Virus record (IMG/VR): IMGVR_UViG_3300026258_000262
Coordinates: 1 to 31,751 of that record
From: a virus
Lineage: Duplodnaviria; Caudoviricetes
Length of the DNA stretch: 31,751 nucleotides
Direction: 5' to 3' (one strand)
Shown here: piece by piece, positions 17,490 to 31,084 of the stretch
Position numbering within the stretch: position 1 is the first letter of the stretch
Layout of the letters: every line of letters starts with the position of its first letter
The notes under the pieces: generated by a model
What the model was told of the DNA's origin: nothing
The model's input: the letters and a program-made list of their open reading frames with translations, nothing else
Databases searched by the model: none
Position numbers and translations under genes: made by a program

Positions 17490-17856
17490 ACTCTTCTATT
17501 CTATCAAAGAACCTCAACTCAGCAGCGTACATTGATCCAATGACTGACTTGTCTTTCCAGTCAGATCCTACAACCATTATATCAGGTTTTACTGTTTTTA
17601 TACAGCGTCCCAATTCTTCATCACTGTCAAAGACTACAATATAGTCAACAGCCTTTAGATTCTGGAGCATATATGCTCTATCACCAACGCTATTTACTGG
17701 TCTAGTTGGACCTTTCTTTTCCCTAACTCTTCTATCACTATCAATACCGACAGTTAGGGAATCACCTAGAGACTTAGCATAGTTCAAGAGTTGAATGTGT
17801 CCTGGATGCAGGATGTCAAACGTTCCGTTGACAAAGATATGCTTCATAACACTCAC
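17446..17856 (-). CDS. Nucleotidyltransferase, HldE/RfaE domain II-like
   Basis: NGTFDILHPGH, GIDSD, KGPTRP, GSDW; start may be 17847. Confidence 0.88.
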   Translation of the reverse strand: MSVMKHIFVNGTFDILHPGHIQLLNYAKSLGDSLTVGIDSDRRVREKKGPTRPVNSVGDRAYMLQNLKAVDYIVVFDSDEELGRCIKTVKPDIMVVGSDWKDKSVIGSMYAAELRFFDRIEEYATTKTIQSIIDRG

Positions 17857-18673
17857 GAATTCCTTTTTCTAAACCATCATATTTGATAGGAAGAGTATTT
17901 GATTTTCCACAATATGAAAACTCAGGATACTGACCTTCCATAATAACATCAACTTCATGATCTCCCATTCGGTTAATCATTTTAGCAATGTCACTAAGCA
18001 TGTACTTCTCCGAATATACACAGTTCATATCAGCCGGTGCATAGTTAGTTGTCATGTCATCAAGATGATATTTGATGATTTTATATAAATCGTTTGCATA
18101 AATGAAATCAATCTTCCTATCCTTGAGCAATCGAATGGGTTTATGATTAATGTAGTTATTGATGTTGGTATTAAAAAATCTAGATGACTCTTCGTGGACA
18201 CCAAAGCACCCAAAAACACGAAGATTCACTCCAATTGGACTACTTAATACACGTTTAGCAATGATATATTTTGATAGTCCATATGGATCACTAGGGATTA
18301 CATCTCCAAAATTTATAGGAGTTGGTTCAGGCACTGAGGATGGTCTACCGTATGAAGCACCACTATCCAAGTTAATAAACTTAGATGTAGAACCAGAGGC
18401 ATACTTATACAAAGTCTCAAACATTCTGAGATTAGTTGCAAGAACTTTTGCACTATCATCAATGTCTCTCCTGCCACCGACGATAGCAGCATGAATGATG
18501 GCATCATATAGTTGACCATCCTCAAACAAAGTAGCAACCTCAGCATCAACCTCAAGACGAACTTGTGTTGATCTAGGTCGAACTACTTCATACCCATCTT
18601 TCTCCAAGAAAGGAATAATTTGGCGACCAATGAATCCATTGCCACCAGTGAAAAGGATTTTTTTATTTGTCAT
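17816..18673 (-). CDS. NAD-dependent sugar epimerase/reductase (extended SDR)
   Basis: TGGNGFIG, SGASYG, YGLSK, LRVFG. Confidence 0.85.
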   Translation of the reverse strand: MTNKKILFTGGNGFIGRQIIPFLEKDGYEVVRPRSTQVRLEVDAEVATLFEDGQLYDAIIHAAIVGGRRDIDDSAKVLATNLRMFETLYKYASGSTSKFINLDSGASYGRPSSVPEPTPINFGDVIPSDPYGLSKYIIAKRVLSSPIGVNLRVFGCFGVHEESSRFFNTNINNYINHKPIRLLKDRKIDFIYANDLYKIIKYHLDDMTTNYAPADMNCVYSEKYMLSDIAKMINRMGDHEVDVIMEGQYPEFSYCGKSNTLPIKYDGLEKGIRECYEAYLCQRNV

Positions 18674-19529
18674 GTTTCCATCCGGCTCCTTGTCCTAATA
18701 GTTTTTCAAGTTCTTCATCCTTGATCTCATAGAAGTTTTCTTGTGAAGGGAACTGTAGATCACGTACTTCATTCACATATTCGGTGAGAGCAGACTGAAT
18801 CATTTGACCTGCCTCACAATATCTTTTTACAAACTTAGATTTGAACTCCCAAAAGAGTCCAACCAAGTCATGCATAATAACCAACTGCCCATCAACCCTG
18901 TCACCAGCACCAATACCATATACCGGTATCTCAAGGTTAGTTGCAATCATCTCAGCAGATTCTCTAGGCATACCCTCAAGAAGAAGGAAAGTACATCCGG
19001 CATCTTGTAAACGCAAAGCTTGATCAAGAATAACCTTTGCTTGGTCTGCAGTCTTACCTTGAACACGATACCCACCAAGTTTAGCACGAGTATGAGGAGT
19101 CAATCCAAGGTGACTCATCACCATGATACCAGCATCGCAGATTGCTTTAACTCTCTCAACCATACATCCCTCAACTTTAACAGCATCCATTCCAGCTTGA
19201 ATGAAATCACCAGCATTCCTGACTGCTTCTTCGTTAGAAATCTGATAGGACATGTAAGGCAAATCACCAACAGTAAAAGCACGACTTGAACCTCTTGCCA
19301 CTGCTCTAGCAGAGCGCAGCATATCATCCATGGTGACTGGAATAGTGCTCTTATACCCCAAGGTAGTCATACCAAGAGAATCACCAACTAAAATCCAATC
19401 AACACCAGCATTGTCTGCCATCAGTGCCTGAGGATAATCATAGGCAGTCACACCAACAGTCTTCACGTTGTTCTGTTTTTGTTTGCGTAACTTTAGAATA
19501 GTTACCTTATCTTTATTATCAGCAGGCAT
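18663..19529 (-). CDS. panB: Ketopantoate hydroxymethyltransferase (PanB) family protein
   Basis: TAYD, ILVGDSLGM, GDLPYMSY, AVKVEG, HLGLTP, YRVQGK, LLLE, GIGAG..DGQ. Confidence 0.93.
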   Translation of the reverse strand: MPADNKDKVTILKLRKQKQNNVKTVGVTAYDYPQALMADNAGVDWILVGDSLGMTTLGYKSTIPVTMDDMLRSARAVARGSSRAFTVGDLPYMSYQISNEEAVRNAGDFIQAGMDAVKVEGCMVERVKAICDAGIMVMSHLGLTPHTRAKLGGYRVQGKTADQAKVILDQALRLQDAGCTFLLLEGMPRESAEMIATNLEIPVYGIGAGDRVDGQLVIMHDLVGLFWEFKSKFVKRYCEAGQMIQSALTEYVNEVRDLQFPSQENFYEIKDEELEKLLGQGAGWKHDK

Positions 19530-19530
19530 A

Positions 19531-21216
19531 TTAATCTAGGGGCTTAATAATCATATTATCATAAAATTCCTCTCTGGACAAGAAAGGATACATGTCTTCT
19601 AAAGGTGGAGCACTAATTGTTCCATCAGGATTTTTTCTTCCCTGAAGTGTTGGAACAACCTCTTGCCATTTTTCACAGAAGACTTCACAAACAACAGGAC
19701 CAGGATAATCTAGAGTATATTTAATTGCTCCTTCCAATCCATCGGCATCAGCAAAAGCATATTCAATTCCAAAACTTTCAGTTACTTTCCGAATATTTGG
19801 GATCGATACTCCACTTGACTCATCGGTCCCAATCTCTCTACCCTCAAAGAACTTCTTTTGTGTGGTGCGAATAGAAAGATATCCATCATTGTTCCACACG
19901 AATAGTTTAACGGGAAGATTGTAATGTGCAATAGTTTGGAGTTCTTGCATATTCATCATGAATGAACCATCACCAGTTACTCCAATCACAGCACCATCTT
20001 TGGCAAATGCAGCACCAATACAAGCAGGAATAGTGAATCCCATCTCTGCTTGGGAACTGGACGTGATAAATCTCTGATTTGCTTGAATTTCTGTTGCTTG
20101 AGCACAGACATAGAATGCAGATCCAGCATCGGAAATGACTACATCATCAATACGCTTAGTTTCATTCAACACCTTCATAAAGTAATAAAGATCTACTTTA
20201 TCTGAGGGATTCTCAGTAGGACAGACAGGCCACTTTTTCTTCCATGAACGACAGATCTGATTCCAATCATCCTTCTTACGATCAAACTTATTCAGAGTAA
20301 GGAAATCTTTCGCATCACGATGAATAAATCGATCAATCTTTACAGTTTCTTTTGAATGTTCATCCTTATCAATGTCCACAACAATTACTTTTGCATCTCT
20401 AGCAAAAGTTTTGTAGTTATATCCAGTCACAGGGACAGGAAGACGGCATCCAATCACTAAGAGTAAGTCACAATTCTGCATCGCAAAGTTACCAGCACGG
20501 GTTCCTTTAACACCAACCCTACCCACAAAGTTTGAATAAACAGAGGGAAACAGATCGACCGCATTATATGAAGTAACTACAGGAATGTTTGTGCTCTGAA
20601 CAAAATCAACAAATTCATTACGAGCTTGAGCACAGTTAATACCATTACCAGCAAGAATAAGCGGTCTCTCCGCCTTTCTTATAGTATCCTCAAGGTCAAA
20701 ACACTGAGCACCTTGTACGTCCATAGGAATATCAACCCATACAGGACCAGGACGGCCATGAGTAGCAATCCGAATCGCATCTTTCATCACCTCATCAATA
20801 TCATCAGGATCATCAACAAATACCGCATACTTAGTAATTGGTTTTACAATATCAATAATATTTGCCTCTTGTACCCCAAGGTTTCTACTGCCCTCTGGTG
20901 CCATGTGTGGGCGATTTACATTGCCAGACACAAAGATGACAGGAACACTGTCCTGCCATGCGTCTAGGAGTCCTGTGATAGCGTTAGTTCCGCCACAACC
21001 GGTGGTGACACAAACAGCACTTAGACTATTCTTATACTTTGCATATGAGACAGCACCCATTGCACATGCTTGTTCATGGTGATTACAAATTGGTTTGATG
21101 TTTTCATGGGCAGCAATCGCATCATTCAAAAACATGGCTCCACCACCAGTTACAAGAAAGATGTGTTCACATCCTGCCTTGTAGATCTGATCGATAACAT
21201 AATCTGCTACTCTCAT
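19531..21216 (-). CDS. ThDP-dependent acetolactate-synthase-like enzyme (YerE-like by context)
   Basis: HHEQ, TTGCGGTN, GRPGPVWVDIPMDVQ, GDGSFMMN...NN, C-terminal PPLEDMYPFL. Confidence 0.88.
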   Translation of the reverse strand: MRVADYVIDQIYKAGCEHIFLVTGGGAMFLNDAIAAHENIKPICNHHEQACAMGAVSYAKYKNSLSAVCVTTGCGGTNAITGLLDAWQDSVPVIFVSGNVNRPHMAPEGSRNLGVQEANIIDIVKPITKYAVFVDDPDDIDEVMKDAIRIATHGRPGPVWVDIPMDVQGAQCFDLEDTIRKAERPLILAGNGINCAQARNEFVDFVQSTNIPVVTSYNAVDLFPSVYSNFVGRVGVKGTRAGNFAMQNCDLLLVIGCRLPVPVTGYNYKTFARDAKVIVVDIDKDEHSKETVKIDRFIHRDAKDFLTLNKFDRKKDDWNQICRSWKKKWPVCPTENPSDKVDLYYFMKVLNETKRIDDVVISDAGSAFYVCAQATEIQANQRFITSSSQAEMGFTIPACIGAAFAKDGAVIGVTGDGSFMMNMQELQTIAHYNLPVKLFVWNNDGYLSIRTTQKKFFEGREIGTDESSGVSIPNIRKVTESFGIEYAFADADGLEGAIKYTLDYPGPVVCEVFCEKWQEVVPTLQGRKNPDGTISAPPLEDMYPFLSREEFYDNMIIKPLD

Positions 21217-22496
21217 TTCTTAAAATTATCCACTACAGTGCCAACATATTCAATCATCTCTTCTGTAATAGTGGGTGAGCATCCAACAAAGAAGACAAGA
21301 TCAAGAACCTTACAAGCATTAGAATAATTACGATAGTAATCAAGGTGACTATATCCAGGGTGCATAAGGATATTGCCAGCAAAGTAATTACGAGTTTGAA
21401 CTTTATTATCCTCCAAATGTTTAGTCAAATTATTTTTAGTTTCTCTACTATCACAAATGATAGGGACACCAAACCAACTAGTTTCTGCTTCAGGTCTTTC
21501 ATTCACACTACGAACACCAGGGATACGTTCAAAATGTTCCTGCATCAGCAACTTATTTTTACGACGTAACCGATGAATCTCATCCTGTTTATCTAACTGA
21601 ACAACACCAACCGAACCCTGAAAGTCCATTGGTTTAAGATTATATCCCATGATACTGTAGACATACTTATGATCAATCAGTCCATCATAATGCTCAATCC
21701 ACTTATCAAATCTCTTGCCACATGTTCCACAAGACAGAAGATTCTGTGTACCAACACAATAGCAATCACGTCCCCACCATGCAAAGCTACGAGCAATGTT
21801 AATCAGTTCCTCATCGTCAGAAGAGATCATACCACCCTCACCAGTACAGATGTGATGTGCGGGATAAAATGAGCATGAAGCAGCGATAGCATGATCAGTT
21901 AGGAAATTACCTCTCCATTTACTGCCAAGACTATCACAATTGTCTGCAATCAATAGAATTTTATTACGATCACAAATATCTAAGATCTCATCAAAATCAT
22001 AGGGATTACCCAACACAGGAGATGAGAAAATACCACGGGTTTTCGTGGTGATCTTATCCTCAATCTCACTAACATCCCAATTTAAATCAGAGAAGTCAAT
22101 ATCAACAAATACAGGTTTCAGTCCATTCTGAACAATGGGTGCGATAGTAGTAGGAAAACCAACGCATGACACAATGATTTCGTCACCATCTTGCCAACCA
22201 TATCTCCTCTTTAGAGCAGCAATCATCACTAGATTAGCAGATGAACCAGAGTTCACCATCAAGGAATACTTTTTACCAAACTGTTTGGAGAACTTACGTT
22301 CAAATTTATTCACCTCTCCGCCAGATGGCAACCAGTTCCCAGCCAATAAAGATTTTACAGCAACCTCTAACTCTTTATTGTCCCAATAAGGTCCAGAGTA
22401 ATAAACCGTTTTACCAGGTTTCCAATTTTTGTTAGCAAGATAAGGGGGATCTGCATCTCTAATAAGTGCTTCAATATCAACCATTTTGAACCTCAT
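21213..22496 (-). CDS. rfbH: NDP-4-keto-6-deoxyhexose 3-dehydrase (E1/RfbH/DdhC family)
   Basis: NSGSSANL; SFYPAHH (His in place of the PLP Lys); candidate Fe-S cysteines in DNCD and WGRDCYC...C; DHKY; start may be 22484. Confidence 0.88.
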   Translation of the reverse strand: MRFKMVDIEALIRDADPPYLANKNWKPGKTVYYSGPYWDNKELEVAVKSLLAGNWLPSGGEVNKFERKFSKQFGKKYSLMVNSGSSANLVMIAALKRRYGWQDGDEIIVSCVGFPTTIAPIVQNGLKPVFVDIDFSDLNWDVSEIEDKITTKTRGIFSSPVLGNPYDFDEILDICDRNKILLIADNCDSLGSKWRGNFLTDHAIAASCSFYPAHHICTGEGGMISSDDEELINIARSFAWWGRDCYCVGTQNLLSCGTCGKRFDKWIEHYDGLIDHKYVYSIMGYNLKPMDFQGSVGVVQLDKQDEIHRLRRKNKLLMQEHFERIPGVRSVNERPEAETSWFGVPIICDSRETKNNLTKHLEDNKVQTRNYFAGNILMHPGYSHLDYYRNYSNACKVLDLVFFVGCSPTITEEMIEYVGTVVDNFKK

Positions 22497-23334
22497 TCAG
22501 ATAATCATTAACTTCATCAGATACAACAGAGGACAACCAATTCCGAAATCCTCCTGATTCTCTATTTAATTTTGCAGCAGCATGTCCACCTGCCTGATGC
22601 ATGACTTTAATATACATTGGTTCCCCTGTCTTAGGATCATCAAGGTACAGTCTATCATCTTTTACATAAATTTGCGACCAACTTTCCCAATGATTATCAT
22701 TTTTACCCCAGGTATTAGAAAGTCCGTAAGAAACCCCGGTTCCCATAGCATCAATAATTTTTGTAGTATACTTTCCTGAGTGAAAAATTTGATTCAAAGT
22801 ATCTTGCTCATCACCAATTCCATGAGCATATGGGTTAACTTCTGTTTTAATTCTAGCAGCTTCAACATTTAAACTATGCCAATCATACCAAAACTGTTTG
22901 CTGTTGGCACCAATCGTACCTGCATTAATAAATCCTTGAATTGGAATTTGTTGACCATTTCCAAAAGGTGGTAAATGAGTAATGGTTATACCAAAATTGT
23001 GCCCCCCTGCATGATCTAAAGAGTTGTTGTTTCTGACTCCGATAATATCTTCTTCACTCTCAAAAAACTCAGTCATTGGTCCAGTGACAACCGCATCAGC
23101 ATCCAAATGAACAACCATATCATATTCCTCAACAAAAGGAAGACAAGTAGCTGCCATCATCCAGATAGGTTTCATCCATGGCATTTCAGAGTGTATTTGT
23201 TCAGTCATCTTAGTATCAAAGATAAAGTGATCTACCTCTGGATGAAAATATTTGACAGAGTTAATTAATTTATCTAGACCTAGAAGTTCTACATAATCGT
23301 CAGTACACCAAGTTGTAACAGCAATTTTTTTCAT
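22477..23334 (-). CDS. Putative GT8-like glycosyltransferase
   Basis: HLDAD (DxD), FINAG, DEQDTLN. Confidence 0.65.
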   Translation of the reverse strand: MKKIAVTTWCTDDYVELLGLDKLINSVKYFHPEVDHFIFDTKMTEQIHSEMPWMKPIWMMAATCLPFVEEYDMVVHLDADAVVTGPMTEFFESEEDIIGVRNNNSLDHAGGHNFGITITHLPPFGNGQQIPIQGFINAGTIGANSKQFWYDWHSLNVEAARIKTEVNPYAHGIGDEQDTLNQIFHSGKYTTKIIDAMGTGVSYGLSNTWGKNDNHWESWSQIYVKDDRLYLDDPKTGEPMYIKVMHQAGGHAAAKLNRESGGFRNWLSSVVSDEVNDYLNEVQNG

Positions 23335-24314
23335 CAGTTAATTTTATCGTACCAATATTTTAAAAGATCATTGAGTGTAGTGTCAATGTCATACTCTTCT
23401 TTAAATCCAGTCAGTTCAACCAGGTTAGAAGAATCACCATGTTGATAGTAGATTTCATGTGGACGCCAAAAAGGTTTATGAATCTTTTGTACCACATTAT
23501 CCAAACCTGACAGTTCAATCAGTTTATCAGTGAAATACTGCATCTGTCTGGGTGTATCACCACAGATATTAAAAACATGATTAGTCACATCCTTATGCAT
23601 CATAGCAAGATAGTATGCTCTGACAGTATCACGAACGTCCATGACAACTCTTGTTGTGCTGAGATTGCCAATCAATAGTTCTTTAGATTGCAAACCTTTC
23701 ATCATCCTAGCAATTTGATAAGCATCAGATGAGATAGAAAAAATTCGTCCTCTACGTGGTCCAGTATGAGAGAATGCTCTAGTAATAAATCCCTTCAGAA
23801 ATCCATTATTAAATCTCTCCTGGAGATACACATCAGTGGCTGCCTTAGAGGCACCATATGGGTTAGAAGGAACAATAGAATCATTCCAGTGAATCTTACG
23901 TCCATCCTGCCCCACATTGCCGTACACCTCTGATGTAGAACAGAACATCACCTTACATTCAGGTTGATGATCTTGAAGGACCTGGATTAGATTGGCACTA
24001 CCCATAACATTAGTTTCCATAGTGCCAATAGGATCATGGAAACTAGTGGGTGGGTGTGATTGTGCTGCTAAATGGAAGACACCGTTAAACTCATTCTCCT
24101 CAAAAACCTTACGCATTGAGCGATAGTTAGTTAAATCCCCATACAGGAAGGTGATAGAGTTATAAACATCATCAGGGACAACATCACGGATATCACTCTC
24201 CATACCATTGGTACGACGAATGAGACCAAAGACTTTATGTCCCTCACGATAAAGAAGGTTTGCTAAGTGAGCACCAGCAAATCCTGTTATACCGGTAATT
24301 AAAAAATTTGACAT
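23334..24314 (-). CDS. GDP-mannose 4,6-dehydratase-like SDR
   Basis: TGITGFAG, LAAQSH, STSE (dehydratase Thr/Glu), YGASK, GNL...R; start probably MSNF at 24314. Confidence 0.8.
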   Translation of the reverse strand: MSNFLITGITGFAGAHLANLLYREGHKVFGLIRRTNGMESDIRDVVPDDVYNSITFLYGDLTNYRSMRKVFEENEFNGVFHLAAQSHPPTSFHDPIGTMETNVMGSANLIQVLQDHQPECKVMFCSTSEVYGNVGQDGRKIHWNDSIVPSNPYGASKAATDVYLQERFNNGFLKGFITRAFSHTGPRRGRIFSISSDAYQIARMMKGLQSKELLIGNLSTTRVVMDVRDTVRAYYLAMMHKDVTNHVFNICGDTPRQMQYFTDKLIELSGLDNVVQKIHKPFWRPHEIYYQHGDSSNLVELTGFKEEYDIDTTLNDLLKYWYDKIN

Positions 24315-24315
24315 A

Positions 24316-25032
24316 TTAATTTGGAACAAAAGTTGGATTTTTAGAAAAAGGAATATATTTAACGTCAGAGTGATGATTTCCCTGATACATGAAATATTTT
24401 TTGCATTGAATATCTAATTTATCAATAACATAATTTACCGCAGTATGGACTGTATGTATTTCTGTTGCTTTTTCAAGCACCTTACACCAATCAAGTAGAG
24501 TAAATCCGTCAATGTATTGAAGTTCTACTACTGGCAAATCATAATCTTCAGCAGATAATGGATTTATGTTACAATATCTAGCTTCGTTATAAAGATTATT
24601 CATGAATACAAACTCAGAGTCATCTTTAAGACCAAGGACATTATAGTACAGATCATCCTCTTTATCAAACTTCCTATCAAAGGTAAGACCATCTCTCCAA
24701 TCAAGACAGTTCATGTTCATCACATGATACTTAGAAGACATGATCCTCTCATCACCAATATTCCATAGATGAGGTCTCATGATACCAAGATATACGAAGT
24801 TAGGAGTGATGATGACTGCATCTTGACCATAATATTCATTTCCAGGAAAGATATCAGATCTAGAACAAAAATTAATATCTTTAATATAATCACCTAACCA
24901 TAAAATATCATCTCTAAGAGGCCAAAAAATTTCATATCCCATAGAGATGTATTTTTTTGCTATCGCTTGAAGATAAAGAATATCTCCAATCCCAGCCCAA
25001 TGATGTATCAGACAAACTTTATTCAAATTCAA
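24316..25032 (-). CDS. Hypothetical protein (possible glycosyltransferase)
   Basis: 238 aa; N-terminal AGIGDIL motif reminiscent of GT-B enzymes. Confidence 0.6.
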   Translation of the reverse strand: MNLNKVCLIHHWAGIGDILYLQAIAKKYISMGYEIFWPLRDDILWLGDYIKDINFCSRSDIFPGNEYYGQDAVIITPNFVYLGIMRPHLWNIGDERIMSSKYHVMNMNCLDWRDGLTFDRKFDKEDDLYYNVLGLKDDSEFVFMNNLYNEARYCNINPLSAEDYDLPVVELQYIDGFTLLDWCKVLEKATEIHTVHTAVNYVIDKLDIQCKKYFMYQGNHHSDVKYIPFSKNPTFVPN

Positions 25033-27738: not shown

Positions 27739-27767
27739 ATTATACCTCACAGAAGGTAATTAGTCAA
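27739..27767 (-). promoter_or_regulatory. Sigma70-type promoter
   Basis: TTGACT-N17-TATAAT upstream of the 21-gene glycan operon. Confidence 0.75.
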
Positions 27768-28689
27768 GATACCACTTGACAGTCTCGGCTAAACCTCTAT
27801 TAAATTCTACACCTGGAAACCATCCGGTTTTTTCTGTGAGTTTAGAAAAATCTGTTCCATACCTTTGATCCTGTCCTGGTCTCTCATCAGATTGTCCTAT
27901 TAAAGAGTGTGGTTTATCAAGGATGTCTAAGATTTTTTTTGTTATATCCATATTTGTTACCTCACATCCGCCACCAATATTAAACTTATCGTTAATTACT
28001 TTCTTTTCATCCAAAGACCAGATCGCAGCACAGTGATCAAGAACGTGAATCCAATCCCTAATTTGATGACCTCCACCATACATGTTGGTGACAGTATCAT
28101 TCATTGCGTTTTGAATGACTTTTGGAATTAGTTTCTCTGGGTGTTGGCGAGGTCCGTAATTATTAGAGGAACTAGTAATAATATACGGTAGATCATAAGT
28201 GTTATTCCATGTCCTCACCATGTGCTCAGCAGATGCCTTTGTAGCAGAGTATGGATTACGTGGATCATATGGTGTATTTTCTGTAAAAAGAGAACCATCA
28301 AAATCTAAAGATCCATACACCTCATCTGTGGATACATGATGAAATTTTTCAACACCAACAGCAACACTAGATGAAAGAAGATTTGTTGTTCCAATAATAT
28401 TTGTTTTGATGAAAGGGGTCACGTCTCTGATAGAGTTGTCAACATGACTCTCTGCGGCAAAGTTAAACACCTTTGTTGGTTTTACTTTCTTAAAAATATA
28501 ATCTACATGTTCTTTGTTAGAAATATCACACCAGATGAATTCCACACCAGCTGGTATATTACTTTCCTTACCAGCATATGTGATATTATCTAAAACAATA
28601 ATCCTGTCGTCGGTAACATTCTCTAAAAAGTATAGAAAGTTGCTGCCAATAAATCCAGCACCTCCAGTCACCAAAATTGTATTAAACAT
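27760..28689 (-). CDS. rfbB: dTDP-glucose 4,6-dehydratase
   Basis: TGGAGFIGSN, TYAG, FAAESHVDNSI, STDEVYG, PYSATK, NNYGP.Q.PEKLIP. Confidence 0.93.
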   Translation of the reverse strand: MFNTILVTGGAGFIGSNFLYFLENVTDDRIIVLDNITYAGKESNIPAGVEFIWCDISNKEHVDYIFKKVKPTKVFNFAAESHVDNSIRDVTPFIKTNIIGTTNLLSSSVAVGVEKFHHVSTDEVYGSLDFDGSLFTENTPYDPRNPYSATKASAEHMVRTWNNTYDLPYIITSSSNNYGPRQHPEKLIPKVIQNAMNDTVTNMYGGGHQIRDWIHVLDHCAAIWSLDEKKVINDKFNIGGGCEVTNMDITKKILDILDKPHSLIGQSDERPGQDQRYGTDFSKLTEKTGWFPGVEFNRGLAETVKWYLD

Positions 28690-29015: not shown

Positions 29016-29063
29016 AGAAGGGTCTAATGACTCCACCAGTTCTGTTTAAGTCCATCCGTGACT
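29016..29063 (-). ncRNA. wcaG-like RNA motif, 5' part
   Basis: AGTC-ACGGATG-GACT hairpin, then AGAAC-TGGTG-GAGTC-ATTA-GACCCTTCT; family assignment from recall. Confidence 0.5.
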
Positions 29064-30434
29064 GTATATATTCTCTAGTAAGAATTCAGAAGTTTTCTTT
29101 AACCCTTGGACAAAACTATTCATCTCTCTGTCATAATCTATCCAACTACGATCAGTGGTTTTCGTAGTATACGGTAACTTGTATCCATTACCAGCAAGAA
29201 TATAAGGGAGTCCCTCATTGATCATAGGAGGTAAATACTCAATTTCATTGGTAACGTAGTTCCAATAATCAGTATCGTTCCTATGTGCTGCAGCATAATG
29301 CATTTCAATGAACTTACTTTGCTTGTCAACTTCTTGACTGATAAAGTCATTGAAAATTTTTCTATCAAGATAGTTTACTGATTCATTGGATAGAACACTG
29401 AGTAACTTGAAGATACCAGCAATACAGGTATAGATTCCTGTGGCTTCCAATGGTTCAATAAAACTATATGACAGACCAATTGCAACAACATTCTTGATCC
29501 ACCCATGTTCATATCGACCAGAGGTAAAGTCAACTGCTCGAATGTTTTGTGGATCTACTGAGTATCTTTGCGAAATAAAATCTCGAAACTCTTTTTCTAT
29601 TTCTTCAGTAGTTGCAAACTTAAGAGAGTGAACATAACCAAGTGACATAGAGTCCCATAAAGGAATCTCCCAACACCACCCGTTATTCATTGTTACATTA
29701 TTGGTGTAGTTCTTAAGTTGTTCTTGCTTGTTTGTGTATGGAACTTTGCAAGTGATTGCTCGGTGATTAATCAGAGTGTCAGAAAAGGGAATGAATCTTG
29801 ATTTCATTTCCTTAAGCAACAGTGATTTAAATCCAGTGCAATCGACAAAGAGATCTGCATGATGATTACCACTCTCTTTGCAAGTTATGTAATCAATTCC
29901 CTTTGATGACTTGGCACAGGCAATGTATTCATCATCAAAAAACTTGACTCCATTGTTCTTTGCGTAATCAAATATAATCTTTGACAGAGAGTGGCTATCA
30001 AAATGATAAGAAGTCAATCTATCAAAATCCCATCCCTCATCGGTTAATCGATTGAACTCTGCAAGCCTTGAATGTGGAAGACAATATCTTGCATAATGTT
30101 CTTTCTTTACTTCTTCAGGAAAAGATCTCAATAGATCAAAGAATTCATCATCTTTGACTTCTGATTCTCCGAAAGGATAAAAAAATTGTTCTCCTTTCTT
30201 TGACCAGGATTCAAATCCAATGTTTGTTTTATAGGTTGCATTACACTTTGGCATCCAATCACTATCTTCAAGATCAAGATATTGAAGAATAGTGTTCAGA
30301 CTCAATTGTGCAGACTCACCAACACCAATGGTGCCAACTTTGGATGAGTAAATGCATTCAACATCAAAGTGTTTTGAAAGAACTGCTGCGGTAAAAAAAC
30401 CAGCGGTTCCTCCACCGACAACAGTTATTTTCAT
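29046..30434 (-). CDS. Flavin-dependent tryptophan halogenase (PrnA-like) family protein
   Basis: GGGTAG, IGVGES, ATYK (catalytic Lys position), FVDCTGF, GWCWEIPL (WxWxIP), FIEPLEATG; start at 30434 (ATGA overlap). Confidence 0.88.
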   Translation of the reverse strand: MKITVVGGGTAGFFTAAVLSKHFDVECIYSSKVGTIGVGESAQLSLNTILQYLDLEDSDWMPKCNATYKTNIGFESWSKKGEQFFYPFGESEVKDDEFFDLLRSFPEEVKKEHYARYCLPHSRLAEFNRLTDEGWDFDRLTSYHFDSHSLSKIIFDYAKNNGVKFFDDEYIACAKSSKGIDYITCKESGNHHADLFVDCTGFKSLLLKEMKSRFIPFSDTLINHRAITCKVPYTNKQEQLKNYTNNVTMNNGWCWEIPLWDSMSLGYVHSLKFATTEEIEKEFRDFISQRYSVDPQNIRAVDFTSGRYEHGWIKNVVAIGLSYSFIEPLEATGIYTCIAGIFKLLSVLSNESVNYLDRKIFNDFISQEVDKQSKFIEMHYAAAHRNDTDYWNYVTNEIEYLPPMINEGLPYILAGNGYKLPYTTKTTDRSWIDYDREMNSFVQGLKKTSEFLLENIYSHGWT

Positions 30435-30664
30435 GATGCTACGTCCTTCACATAGCAAGGGACACGATCAGGGTCCAACCATTTTGTGTATTCAAAATCT
30501 TCCATAGCAGTCAGAAGTTGCATCTGATTATCACAGAGATACATATCAGCATACCTTTTGGTATACTCATGTGCTTTTTGGATACGATAGTCTGGCATAC
30601 CATTGATTTCCAATGTGCCACACTCAACATAGCGATAAGGGAAACGCTCTAGAAGAACTTTCAC
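30431..30664 (-). CDS. Hypothetical cyanophage protein
   Basis: 77-aa ORF with ATGA overlaps on both sides. Confidence 0.8.
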   Translation of the reverse strand: MKVLLERFPYRYVECGTLEINGMPDYRIQKAHEYTKRYADMYLCDNQMQLLTAMEDFEYTKWLDPDRVPCYVKDVAS

Positions 30665-30927: not shown

Positions 30928-30936
30928 GACTGTCAA

Positions 30937-31009
30937 TGGGGGTCGCGAGGATCGAACTCGCCTTAGCCGAATTATGAGTTCGGTGCATTCACCAGATTGC
31001 TAGACCCCC
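30937..31009 (-). tRNA. tRNA with CAT anticodon (probably Ile2, possibly elongator Met)
   Basis: GGGGGTC/GACCCCC acceptor stem, CCGAA-CTCATAA-TTCGG anticodon arm, GGCGAG-TTCGATC-CTCGC T arm; no initiator features; no encoded CCA. Confidence 0.9.
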
Positions 31010-31012
31010 AAA

Positions 31013-31084
31013 TAGGACCGCTGGGAGTTGAACCCAGTTCACACCGTTATAAGCAGTGGGCCTTAACCGATAGGCGACGGTCCC
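31013..31084 (-). tRNA. tRNA-Ile(TAT)
   Basis: GGGACCG/CGGTCCT acceptor stem, CACTG-CTTATAA-CGGTG anticodon arm, CTGGG-TTCAACT-CCCAG T arm. Confidence 0.92.

Follow-up and report, generated by a model that had tools for sequence, protein, structure and literature searches.

What is a panB gene doing among the sugar genes of a virus? The question is raised by IMG/VR record IMGVR_UViG_3300026258_000262 (Caudoviricetes), whose full 31,751 nt we call the window. On its minus strand, four genes code for an E1-type sugar 3-dehydrase, a thiamine diphosphate (ThDP)-dependent enzyme, a PanB-family hydroxymethyltransferase, and a short-chain dehydrogenase/reductase (SDR). An original prediction, made from the DNA letters, took these genes for a branched-sugar pathway in which PanB is repurposed; our analysis supports this overall interpretation, with the chemistry as its predicted part. 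We think it rather probable that the four genes build a C4-branched 3,6-dideoxy sugar with a three-carbon side chain, the donor being 4-hydroxy-2-oxobutanoate (HOB) that PanB would make.

The four genes and their products

As had been claimed, the four genes abut or overlap: they are intact open reading frames (ORFs), with junctions of −4 nt (E1/ThDP), +1 nt (ThDP/PanB), and −11 nt (PanB/SDR). Near-identical DNA occurs in marine metagenome runs, with at least half of the sampled words matched in 10 of them and no RNA run among the matches listed. Four DNA runs span the stretch as short contigs that read across two of the junctions (E1/ThDP and PanB/SDR), and the differences listed include no indels.

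The first gene (positions 21213 to 22496, minus strand, as for all window coordinates up to 28689; 427 amino acids) encodes a pyridoxamine phosphate- and [2Fe-2S]-dependent nucleoside diphosphate (NDP)-4-keto-6-deoxyhexose 3-dehydrase of the E1/RfbH type, identified by its PDB match and its motifs. The best match is Yersinia E1 (3bcx, E = 3.4e-77), with ColD behind (3.9e-55). The protein has the SFYPAHH motif, in which His replaces the aminotransferase Lys, RDCYC, and a further CxxC; Asn stands at one of the two adjacent Cys of Yersinia E1. His for Lys and a Cys-rich motif are hallmarks of E1-type 3-dehydrases (PMC8987622).

The second gene (19531 to 21216; 561 amino acids) encodes a YerE-like ThDP carboligase. 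Its top PDB matches are JanthE (8rph, E = 4.7e-112) and 5ahk (E = 1.4e-68), a YerE homologue whose PDB title reads acetolactate synthase II; plant and Escherichia coli acetohydroxyacid synthases (AHAS) rank lower. JanthE, the closest solved structure by sequence, shares the C-terminal PPLED tail and has a CDG motif where the window enzyme has GDG. The protein is a three-domain member of the decarboxylase (DC) family in a deoxy-keto-sugar cluster, with a predicted activity on ketone acceptors, and it keeps the HHEQA and GDG..NN motifs. It falls under every AHAS cutoff listed (352 versus 738 and 333 versus 538 bits) and carries V, M, P, and T at the positions of F, K, R, and W of E. coli IlvI, residues of the AHAS active site. 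The window has 65 ORFs of at least 80 amino acids, of which 37 were scanned with Pfam; none of the 37 matched an AHAS regulatory (small) subunit. Judged by its sequence, the window enzyme is not an AHAS.

The third gene (18663 to 19529; 288 amino acids) encodes the PanB protein. It passes the curated models TIGR00222 (278 bits; cutoff, 207.55) and NF001452, and its predicted structure matches ketopantoate hydroxymethyltransferase structures with template modeling scores of 0.78 to 0.79 (by query length). Compared with E. coli PanB (PDB 1m3u), it is 39% identical and alike in fold, Mg ligands, catalytic Glu, and curated family scores. The catalytic motifs were said to be retained, and all seven E. 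coli residues (D45, D84, K112, E114, H136, E181, and D217) have their equivalents in D50, D89, K118, E120, H140, E185, and D221. The claimed absence of panC, panD, panE, ilvC, and ilvD also held for this 31.7-kb fragment: no member of these families was matched among the 37 scanned ORFs, and tblastn of E. coli PanC and PanD against the window returned nothing. Nor was panC matched in nine virus records or ilvC in four; four large PanB-carrying virus records, three of them at least 90% complete, matched neither gene. By fold and catalytic residues the window protein is a PanB; by the residues of its pocket and by its gene context, it does not resemble the pantothenate enzyme.

The fourth gene (17816 to 18673; 285 amino acids) encodes an extended SDR (Pfam Epimerase, E = 1e-22) with its motifs intact, TGGNGFIG for NAD binding and YxxxK as YGLSK. 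Its PDB matches are weak and are to generic SDRs. It is a candidate for reduction of the branch ketone, the role of YerF and ErwF.

Linkage of PanB with the ThDP enzyme

We counted PanB as linked when a ThDP gene lay no more than 400 nt away. Such a gene is present in all 80 viral loci (the best 80 of 107 PanB relatives, many of them near-copies, with 39 ThDP-linked rows left at 90% identity), in 8 of 10 GTDB loci, and in 19 of 21 in-clade metagenome loci. The metagenome scan covered the best 80 of 594, and its other 59 loci hold more distant PanBs, accompanied by ThDP in 2, panC in 20, and panD in 10. Among the 111 in-clade loci, none has panC or panD. The PanB-ThDP linkage is thus far beyond chance (80/80 viral versus 2/59 control loci).

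The original prediction had staked itself on conservation of this linkage. It is conserved: the PanB partners come from several ThDP lineages, and both gene orders occur, with ThDP upstream of PanB in 62 and downstream in 18 of the 80 viral loci. The exact four-gene order is preserved in 26 of the 27 closest viral loci. An E1/ColD-like gene lies within the flank examined in 67/80 viral loci, and His occupies the catalytic position in 71 of 84 E1-like neighbors, the other 13 being unreadable; an SDR homologue is found within 200 nt of PanB in 57/80. Another 25 viral contigs came from two additional scans; 24 have a ThDP gene within 1.8 kb, and one ends about 0.1 kb behind PanB. In contigs L363 and L365 to L368, the best ThDP match lies about 720 to 770 nt from PanB, and the ThDP gene may be split there.

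Viewed from the ThDP side, PanB is adjacent in 37 of 40 loci of at least 44% identity; the contig is cut in two and one has no PanB. Among 25 more distant ThDP loci, 15 have a NeuB-like and 2 an HpcH-like gene (the latter a weak match, E = 9e-5) next to ThDP, so that across the 65 loci other makers of 4-hydroxy-2-oxo acids take the place of PanB beside related viral ThDP genes. In the ThDP tree (all trees in this work are quick trees), the PanB partners fall into several lineages, and the NeuB-linked and HpcH-linked enzymes form one clade each.

A bacterial cluster, L081, contains a complete CDP-3,6-dideoxy sugar set and has the order E3-like reductase, RfbF, RfbG, RfbH, SDR, ThDP, PanB, ABC transporter, and family 2 glycosyltransferase (GT2). 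Its RfbF, RfbG, and RfbH pass their curated cutoffs; its ThDP enzyme and PanB are 59% and 79% identical to those of the window, and the SDR between RfbH and ThDP is 47% identical. The PanB-ThDP pair also occurs in 2 of 401 Prochlorococcaceae genomes (L082 in G005 and L249 in G066), either as a host island or as a single-cell phage contig.

Searches of annotated phage and plasmid collections returned distant PanB and ThDP matches only. Among the annotated phage matches listed by a search tool that may omit very near genomes, the best PanB was 45% and the best ThDP enzyme 31% identical; one Microcystis phage record has panB near panC. No PanB-ThDP or PanB-ThrC fusion was seen among 38 longer proteins, which is weak evidence.

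A PanB lineage with a filled-in pocket

As a pocket signature, we used the residues aligned with E. coli PanB positions 179, 200, 212, and 214; V179 is a pocket residue, and I200 is not known to be one. A description of the ketopantoate hydroxymethyltransferase pocket did not turn up in our search of the open-access literature. The window protein has L183, Y204, L216, and I218 there (LYLI, that is, V179L, I200Y, I212L, and V214I), and its subclade also carries Q142H. LYLI is found in 103 of the 110 ThDP-linked rows, the others being LFLI (5), FYLI (1), and LLLI (1), as against VIVV (17) and VIIV (5) in the 22 panC/panD-linked rows. All 22 PanC/PanE fusions among the 38 longer proteins keep V179, and none has the small-pocket signature. 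Four PanB-methyltransferase fusions (P0241 to P0244) are all LYLI.

Small-pocket PanBs were never beside panC or panD in the loci seen. Of the five bacterial genomes that hold a sugar-linked copy, four have a second PanB together with panC, and these second copies read VIVV, VIIV, LIVV, and VIVV. In a 46-locus control drawn from genomes of Prochlorococcaceae, Bdellovibrionota, Omnitrophota, and Nitrospirota, LYLI occurs in five loci, every one beside ThDP (three are re-finds); the other 41, which are 44 to 52% identical to the query, have neither.

The trees separate the same groups. L102, L150, and L151 were dropped before the first PanB tree (stop or short length), and redundant rows in the trees were removed at an identity threshold of 90% or 80%. 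ThDP-linked and panC/panD-linked PanBs fall on opposite sides (Shimodaira-Hasegawa-like approximate likelihood ratio test [SH-aLRT], 98), and the small-pocket rows make up one side of a branch (SH-aLRT, 95). The window PanB therefore does not nest among housekeeping enzymes, the placement on which the original prediction could have failed.

In E. coli PanB, I202A and I212A enlarge the active site, and V214G favors a large aldehyde (PMC7610986 and PMC7611260). In the window protein the change goes the other way: V179L and V214I add two carbons, which corresponds to the two that pyruvate lacks relative to ketoisovalerate. By this rough count of side-chain carbons, which is not a docking result, the filled-in pocket would suit pyruvate. 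The swapped pocket residues, together with the position beside a ThDP enzyme of the sugar-branching type, lead us to propose PanB as a donor-maker that joins pyruvate and a one-carbon unit; the window panB is probably not a vitamin gene. The equivalents of Y25 and F229, which have a role in folate binding, are invariant in 39/39 ThDP-linked PanB rows.

A sister group linked to thrC and thrB

Independent evidence pointing to HOB as the PanB product comes from a sister group with the same pocket. Six metagenome loci that look like Gemmatimonadota (L115:4896-9020, L120:6001-9082, L121, L122, L128, and L129) have the arrangement panB-thrC-thrB, with an LYLI PanB 50 to 52% identical to that of the window. 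ThrC passes TIGR00260 in 6/6 and ThrB passes TIGR00191 in 5/5 tested, and an aminotransferase gene lies directly upstream of panB in four of the six. Close relatives of these PanBs bear Gemmatimonadota names at NCBI and are LYLI in 118/120. Hom, Asd, and LysC families were absent from the subset of flank ORFs scanned.

HOB is the keto acid of homoserine. These genes are most simply read as an operon that would encode an HOB synthase and a transaminase along with ThrB and ThrC: pyruvate and a C1 unit would give HOB, transamination would give homoserine, and threonine would follow. The HOB-forming step has been called non-native, and Pseudomonas putida PanB partly performs the role of an HOB aldolase in vivo (bioRxiv 10.1101/2025.02.17.638773). 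A natural panB-thrC-thrB route was not found in our search of the open-access literature.

We suggest, more tentatively than the sugar pathway itself, that small-pocket PanBs might be an unrecognized natural class of pyruvate hydroxymethyltransferases (HOB synthases). They would serve a C3-branched dideoxy sugar in marine viruses and, with an aminotransferase, ThrB, and ThrC, an aspartate-independent route in Gemmatimonadota-like bacteria that leads from pyruvate and a C1 unit of folate to homoserine and threonine.

The proposed pathway and its precedents

In the pathway that we favor, E1 would deoxygenate an NDP-4-keto-6-deoxyhexose at C3 (loss of the 3-OH), and the small-pocket PanB would convert pyruvate and methylene-tetrahydrofolate to HOB. 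The ThDP enzyme would then decarboxylate HOB and attach a 3-hydroxypropanoyl unit at C4, which the SDR would reduce to a 1,3-dihydroxypropyl branch. The predicted product is an NDP-3,6-dideoxy-4-C-(1,3-dihydroxypropyl)hexose, that is, erwiniose minus the terminal methyl, which would fill the C3 gap in the C2/C4/C6/C7 yersiniose/erwiniose series.

The logic of a donor-maker followed by a YerE-like enzyme and a reductase is already published: in the scheme for erwiniose, caryophyllose, and gastriose, long branches start from a 4-hydroxy-2-oxo acid that an aldolase has formed; a YerE-like enzyme joins this acid to a 3,6-dideoxy-4-keto sugar, and a reductase acts last (PMC9306805). The deoxy-keto-sugar genes, ThDP gene, and reductase gene (the last in its presumed role) of that scheme are present in both the window and L081. 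What is new is the PanB donor-maker and the predicted sugar. Erwiniose synthesis uses the aldolase-dehydrogenase pair ErwI/ErwJ, ErwE, and ErwF, whereas in the window a PanB-family hydroxymethyltransferase occupies the donor-maker slot; no ErwI-, HpcH-, or citrate-lyase-type aldolase is found at the locus, and the surrounding glycan island includes a class II aldolase/adducin gene at a distance of 4.4 kb. The window also differs in its predicted C3 branch, in being viral, in having no E3, RfbF, or RfbG, and in the lack of a fixed nucleotide carrier. The supplement of PMC9306805 and a 2025 review mention neither PanB nor a hydroxymethyltransferase, and our open-access literature search found neither a PanB-type donor-maker nor a 1,3-dihydroxypropyl branch.

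HOB from pyruvate was the donor that the original prediction gave as an example, and it now appears backed by the pocket substitutions, by the thrC/thrB-linked sister group, and by HOB use in known enzymes: ErwE rejected pyruvate and converted HOB (33% with benzaldehyde), and MyGE and MMAR_2332 likewise accept HOB in vitro (PMC9306805). What the window shares with the yersiniose A pathway (E1/E3, YerE, and YerF) is a single unit that codes for an E1 bearing the catalytic His, a YerE-like enzyme, and an SDR; L081 goes further toward that pathway with E3, RfbF, and RfbG. The window differs by an extra PanB tied to the ThDP gene and by the absence of E3. Of the yersiniose-like E1/E3 scheme that had been proposed, then, E1 was identified and E3 was without a match. 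YerE is confined to pyruvate and 2-oxobutyrate as donors (2025 review).

Several observations weigh against this pathway. Support for the small-pocket branch drops to an SH-aLRT of only 86 once six pocket-region columns and E. coli are removed, the pocket argument is one of residue size at alignment-mapped positions, and a PanB-GT2 fusion (P0261) carries the canonical VIVV pocket. The six thrC/thrB loci amount to one lineage, 77 to 98% identical. Small-pocket PanBs of L083, L087, L114, L125 to L127, and L144 have no ThDP neighbor, and an E1-like gene was not seen in the examined flank of 13/80 viral loci. The window E1 scores 371 bits on the RfbH model, under the equivalog cutoff of 423. E3 has no match in the window, and five virus records searched with an E3 query gave no full-length match. 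The SDR could be a C4 ketoreductase instead. JanthE takes many donors, pyruvate included, and its physiological substrate is not known. Finally, a sugar 4,6-dehydratase gene upstream of the unit (23334 to 24329) is not conserved, with no homologue of at least 50% identity in the loci fetched or in five close records.

Other readings of PanB

Among the alternatives, the best placed leaves the pathway otherwise the same and changes the PanB substrate: from 2-oxobutanoate the branch would be 3-hydroxy-2-methylpropanoyl, and from ketoisovalerate, if this is still used, it would be hydroxypivaloyl, by way of ketopantoate. The linkage evidence suits it equally, the window protein clears the curated panB models, and wild-type E. 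coli PanB with formaldehyde converts several linear and branched 2-oxo acids (PMC7611260). We nevertheless regard it as unlikely, given that all panC/panE-linked copies have a less filled pocket than the window PanB, that an unbranched C4 product fits the thrC/thrB-linked sister group, and that the donor table of Steitz et al. (PMC9306805) includes no 3-branched donor.

A second possibility, which we rate as distinctly less likely again, is that PanB works without folate, as a class II pyruvate aldolase whose second substrate is formaldehyde or some larger aldehyde; it would then yield HOB or a longer 4-hydroxy-2-oxo acid in the manner of ErwI. E. coli PanB is indeed a metal aldolase without folate and accepts C1 to C5 aldehydes (PMC7610986), the P. 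putida enzyme has the partial HOB aldolase role described above, and aldolase-type genes take the PanB slot in other loci. Against this, no aldehyde-supplying gene such as ErwJ was recognized among the scanned window ORFs, and the presumed folate-binding equivalents of Y25 and F229 do not vary in the ThDP-linked rows.

Slightly more doubtful still is an acetyl branch of the yersiniose type, added from pyruvate by the ThDP enzyme, with PanB then hydroxymethylating the branch or serving another glycan decoration. Pyruvate is accepted by YerE and JanthE, and in L083 and L087 a same-clade PanB adjoins an ATP-grasp ligase without ThDP. However, the ThDP gene is directly adjacent to PanB in 80/80 viral loci, and the order question was tested for ErwE by Steitz et al., where pyruvate was not accepted (PMC9306805). 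The original prediction had allowed for PanB extending the branch after ligation; the apparently smaller PanB pocket and the retention of the residues for the 2-oxo acid and Mg make this unlikely in our view.

It is very improbable that the panB and ThDP genes serve as auxiliary metabolic genes (AMGs) for pantothenate and branched-chain amino acids, with AHAS supplying ketoisovalerate to PanB: automatic annotation does read panB and acetolactate synthase, AHAS and PanB share one metabolic route, and a virome paper has a pantoate transferase boosting vitamin B5 and coenzyme A (PMC8940887), but the ThDP enzyme is under the AHAS cutoffs with its AHAS residues replaced, the regulatory subunit, ilvC, ilvD, panC, and panD are all unmatched in the 31.7-kb window, panC is found in 0/9 and ilvC in 0/4 virus records, and the PanB lineage and pocket are distinct from those of housekeeping PanB.

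If the HOB pathway is true, genes of this lineage listed as panB and acetolactate synthase AMGs in ocean viromes (perhaps those of PMC8940887) would be glycan genes, and four pocket residues would suffice to sort glycan from vitamin B5 panB genes. Pyruvate hydroxymethylation, which synthetic C1 engineering deems non-native, would exist in nature. The small-pocket lineage may include a natural HOB synthase, which is sought for synthetic homoserine-cycle methylotrophy, as well as an undescribed threonine route. The branched sugar predicted here was not found in the open-access literature.

Candidate reductant, acceptor source, and transferase

RfbF and RfbG, like E3, have no match in the window. 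A phage [2Fe-2S] ferredoxin (1262 to 1552; Pfam Fer2, PHROG ferredoxin) is a possible stand-in for E3. SpnQ works with ferredoxin/flavodoxin pairs and not with E3 (PMC8987622), and by analogy the phage ferredoxin may be the reductant of E1.

Two sugar 4,6-dehydratase genes lie upstream of the unit. One, at 23334 to 24329, is a GDP-sugar 4,6-dehydratase-like SDR nearest to 7us5 (GDP-D-glycero-D-manno-heptose 4,6-dehydratase; E = 1.5e-49); many close relatives have a small methyltransferase-like gene in its slot. The other, at 27760 to 28689, is an RmlB-type dTDP-glucose 4,6-dehydratase (TIGR01181, 371 bits; cutoff, 365) with an orthologue in one of five close fragmentary records. The acceptor may be carried by dTDP (RmlB) or GDP (23334 to 24329), or it may be host made, since neither dehydratase is conserved in close relatives. 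When L005 is set beside L387 to L390, the genes upstream of the island swap: one record is without a 4,6-dehydratase there, and two have a Gmd-like and ColD-like pair.

A GT8-like glycosyltransferase gene (22477 to 23334) is directly upstream of E1. Its Pfam GT8 match (E = 0.005) is under the cutoff, its Atlas neighbor cluster contains 11% GT8 members, and the gene is kept in 25 of the 27 closest viral loci. As a lead, it is a candidate for transfer of the branched sugar, which may be placed on the host surface or on the virion. In cyanophage P-SSM2, lipopolysaccharide gene clusters have been proposed to change the host surface (Sullivan 2005, PMC1079782); that phage likewise has a marine cyanophage island of sugar epimerases and transferases, and the window differs in having no close PanB or ThDP relative among the annotated phage records listed.

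The surrounding island and related loci

The record encodes a plastoquinol terminal oxidase, ferredoxin, plastocyanin, a cyanophage outer-membrane-like protein, and two tRNAs; we therefore consider the window to be a fragment of a marine cyanophage, presumably of the T4-like class, judging from gene content. The four genes sit in a same-strand glycan island (7074 to 28689) with GT25, two GT11, GT7-like, GT61, and GT10 genes, HldA/HldC-like heptose kinase-like and adenylyltransferase-like genes, a nucleotidyltransferase, FkbM, and several SDRs. At the upstream island edge are a tryptophan-halogenase-family gene (29046 to 30458) and tRNA-Met(CAT) and tRNA-Ile(TAT) (30936 to 31084). A promoter scan of the window gave 73 sites, with 71 expected.

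Small-pocket PanBs also occur in other settings. In L083 (7983-12218) and L087 (7983-11146), a same-clade PanB is followed by the ATP-grasp ligase, with a formyltransferase gene beside them in L083 and an ornithine-cyclodeaminase-family gene in L087; here PanB perhaps serves an acyl decoration derived from HOB or homoserine. In L125 (6947-8209), L127 (6889-8157), L144 (4028-5290), and L145, a small-pocket PanB precedes a conserved 420-amino-acid protein that has no Pfam, NCBIfam, or Atlas match. Genes for MTHFR and a methyl-tetrahydrofolate methyltransferase lie near L127 and L143.

Two groups of loci carry a YerE-like gene with a different partner. A NeuB-family gene replaces PanB beside a separate viral YerE-like clade in L229, L232 to L234, L236, L237, L239 to L243, and L245 to L248, which possibly make another undescribed branched sugar. 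L219, L224, L226, L227, and L230, several of them GVMAG records, have a YerE-like enzyme with GEG instead of GDG; a weak HpcH-like aldolase, a dehydroquinate-synthase-like gene, and a transketolase gene are close by. A search for the capsid of nucleocytoplasmic large DNA viruses (NCLDV) gave no match anywhere, controls included; L220, which is related to the GEG-type loci, includes an NCLDV capsid gene.

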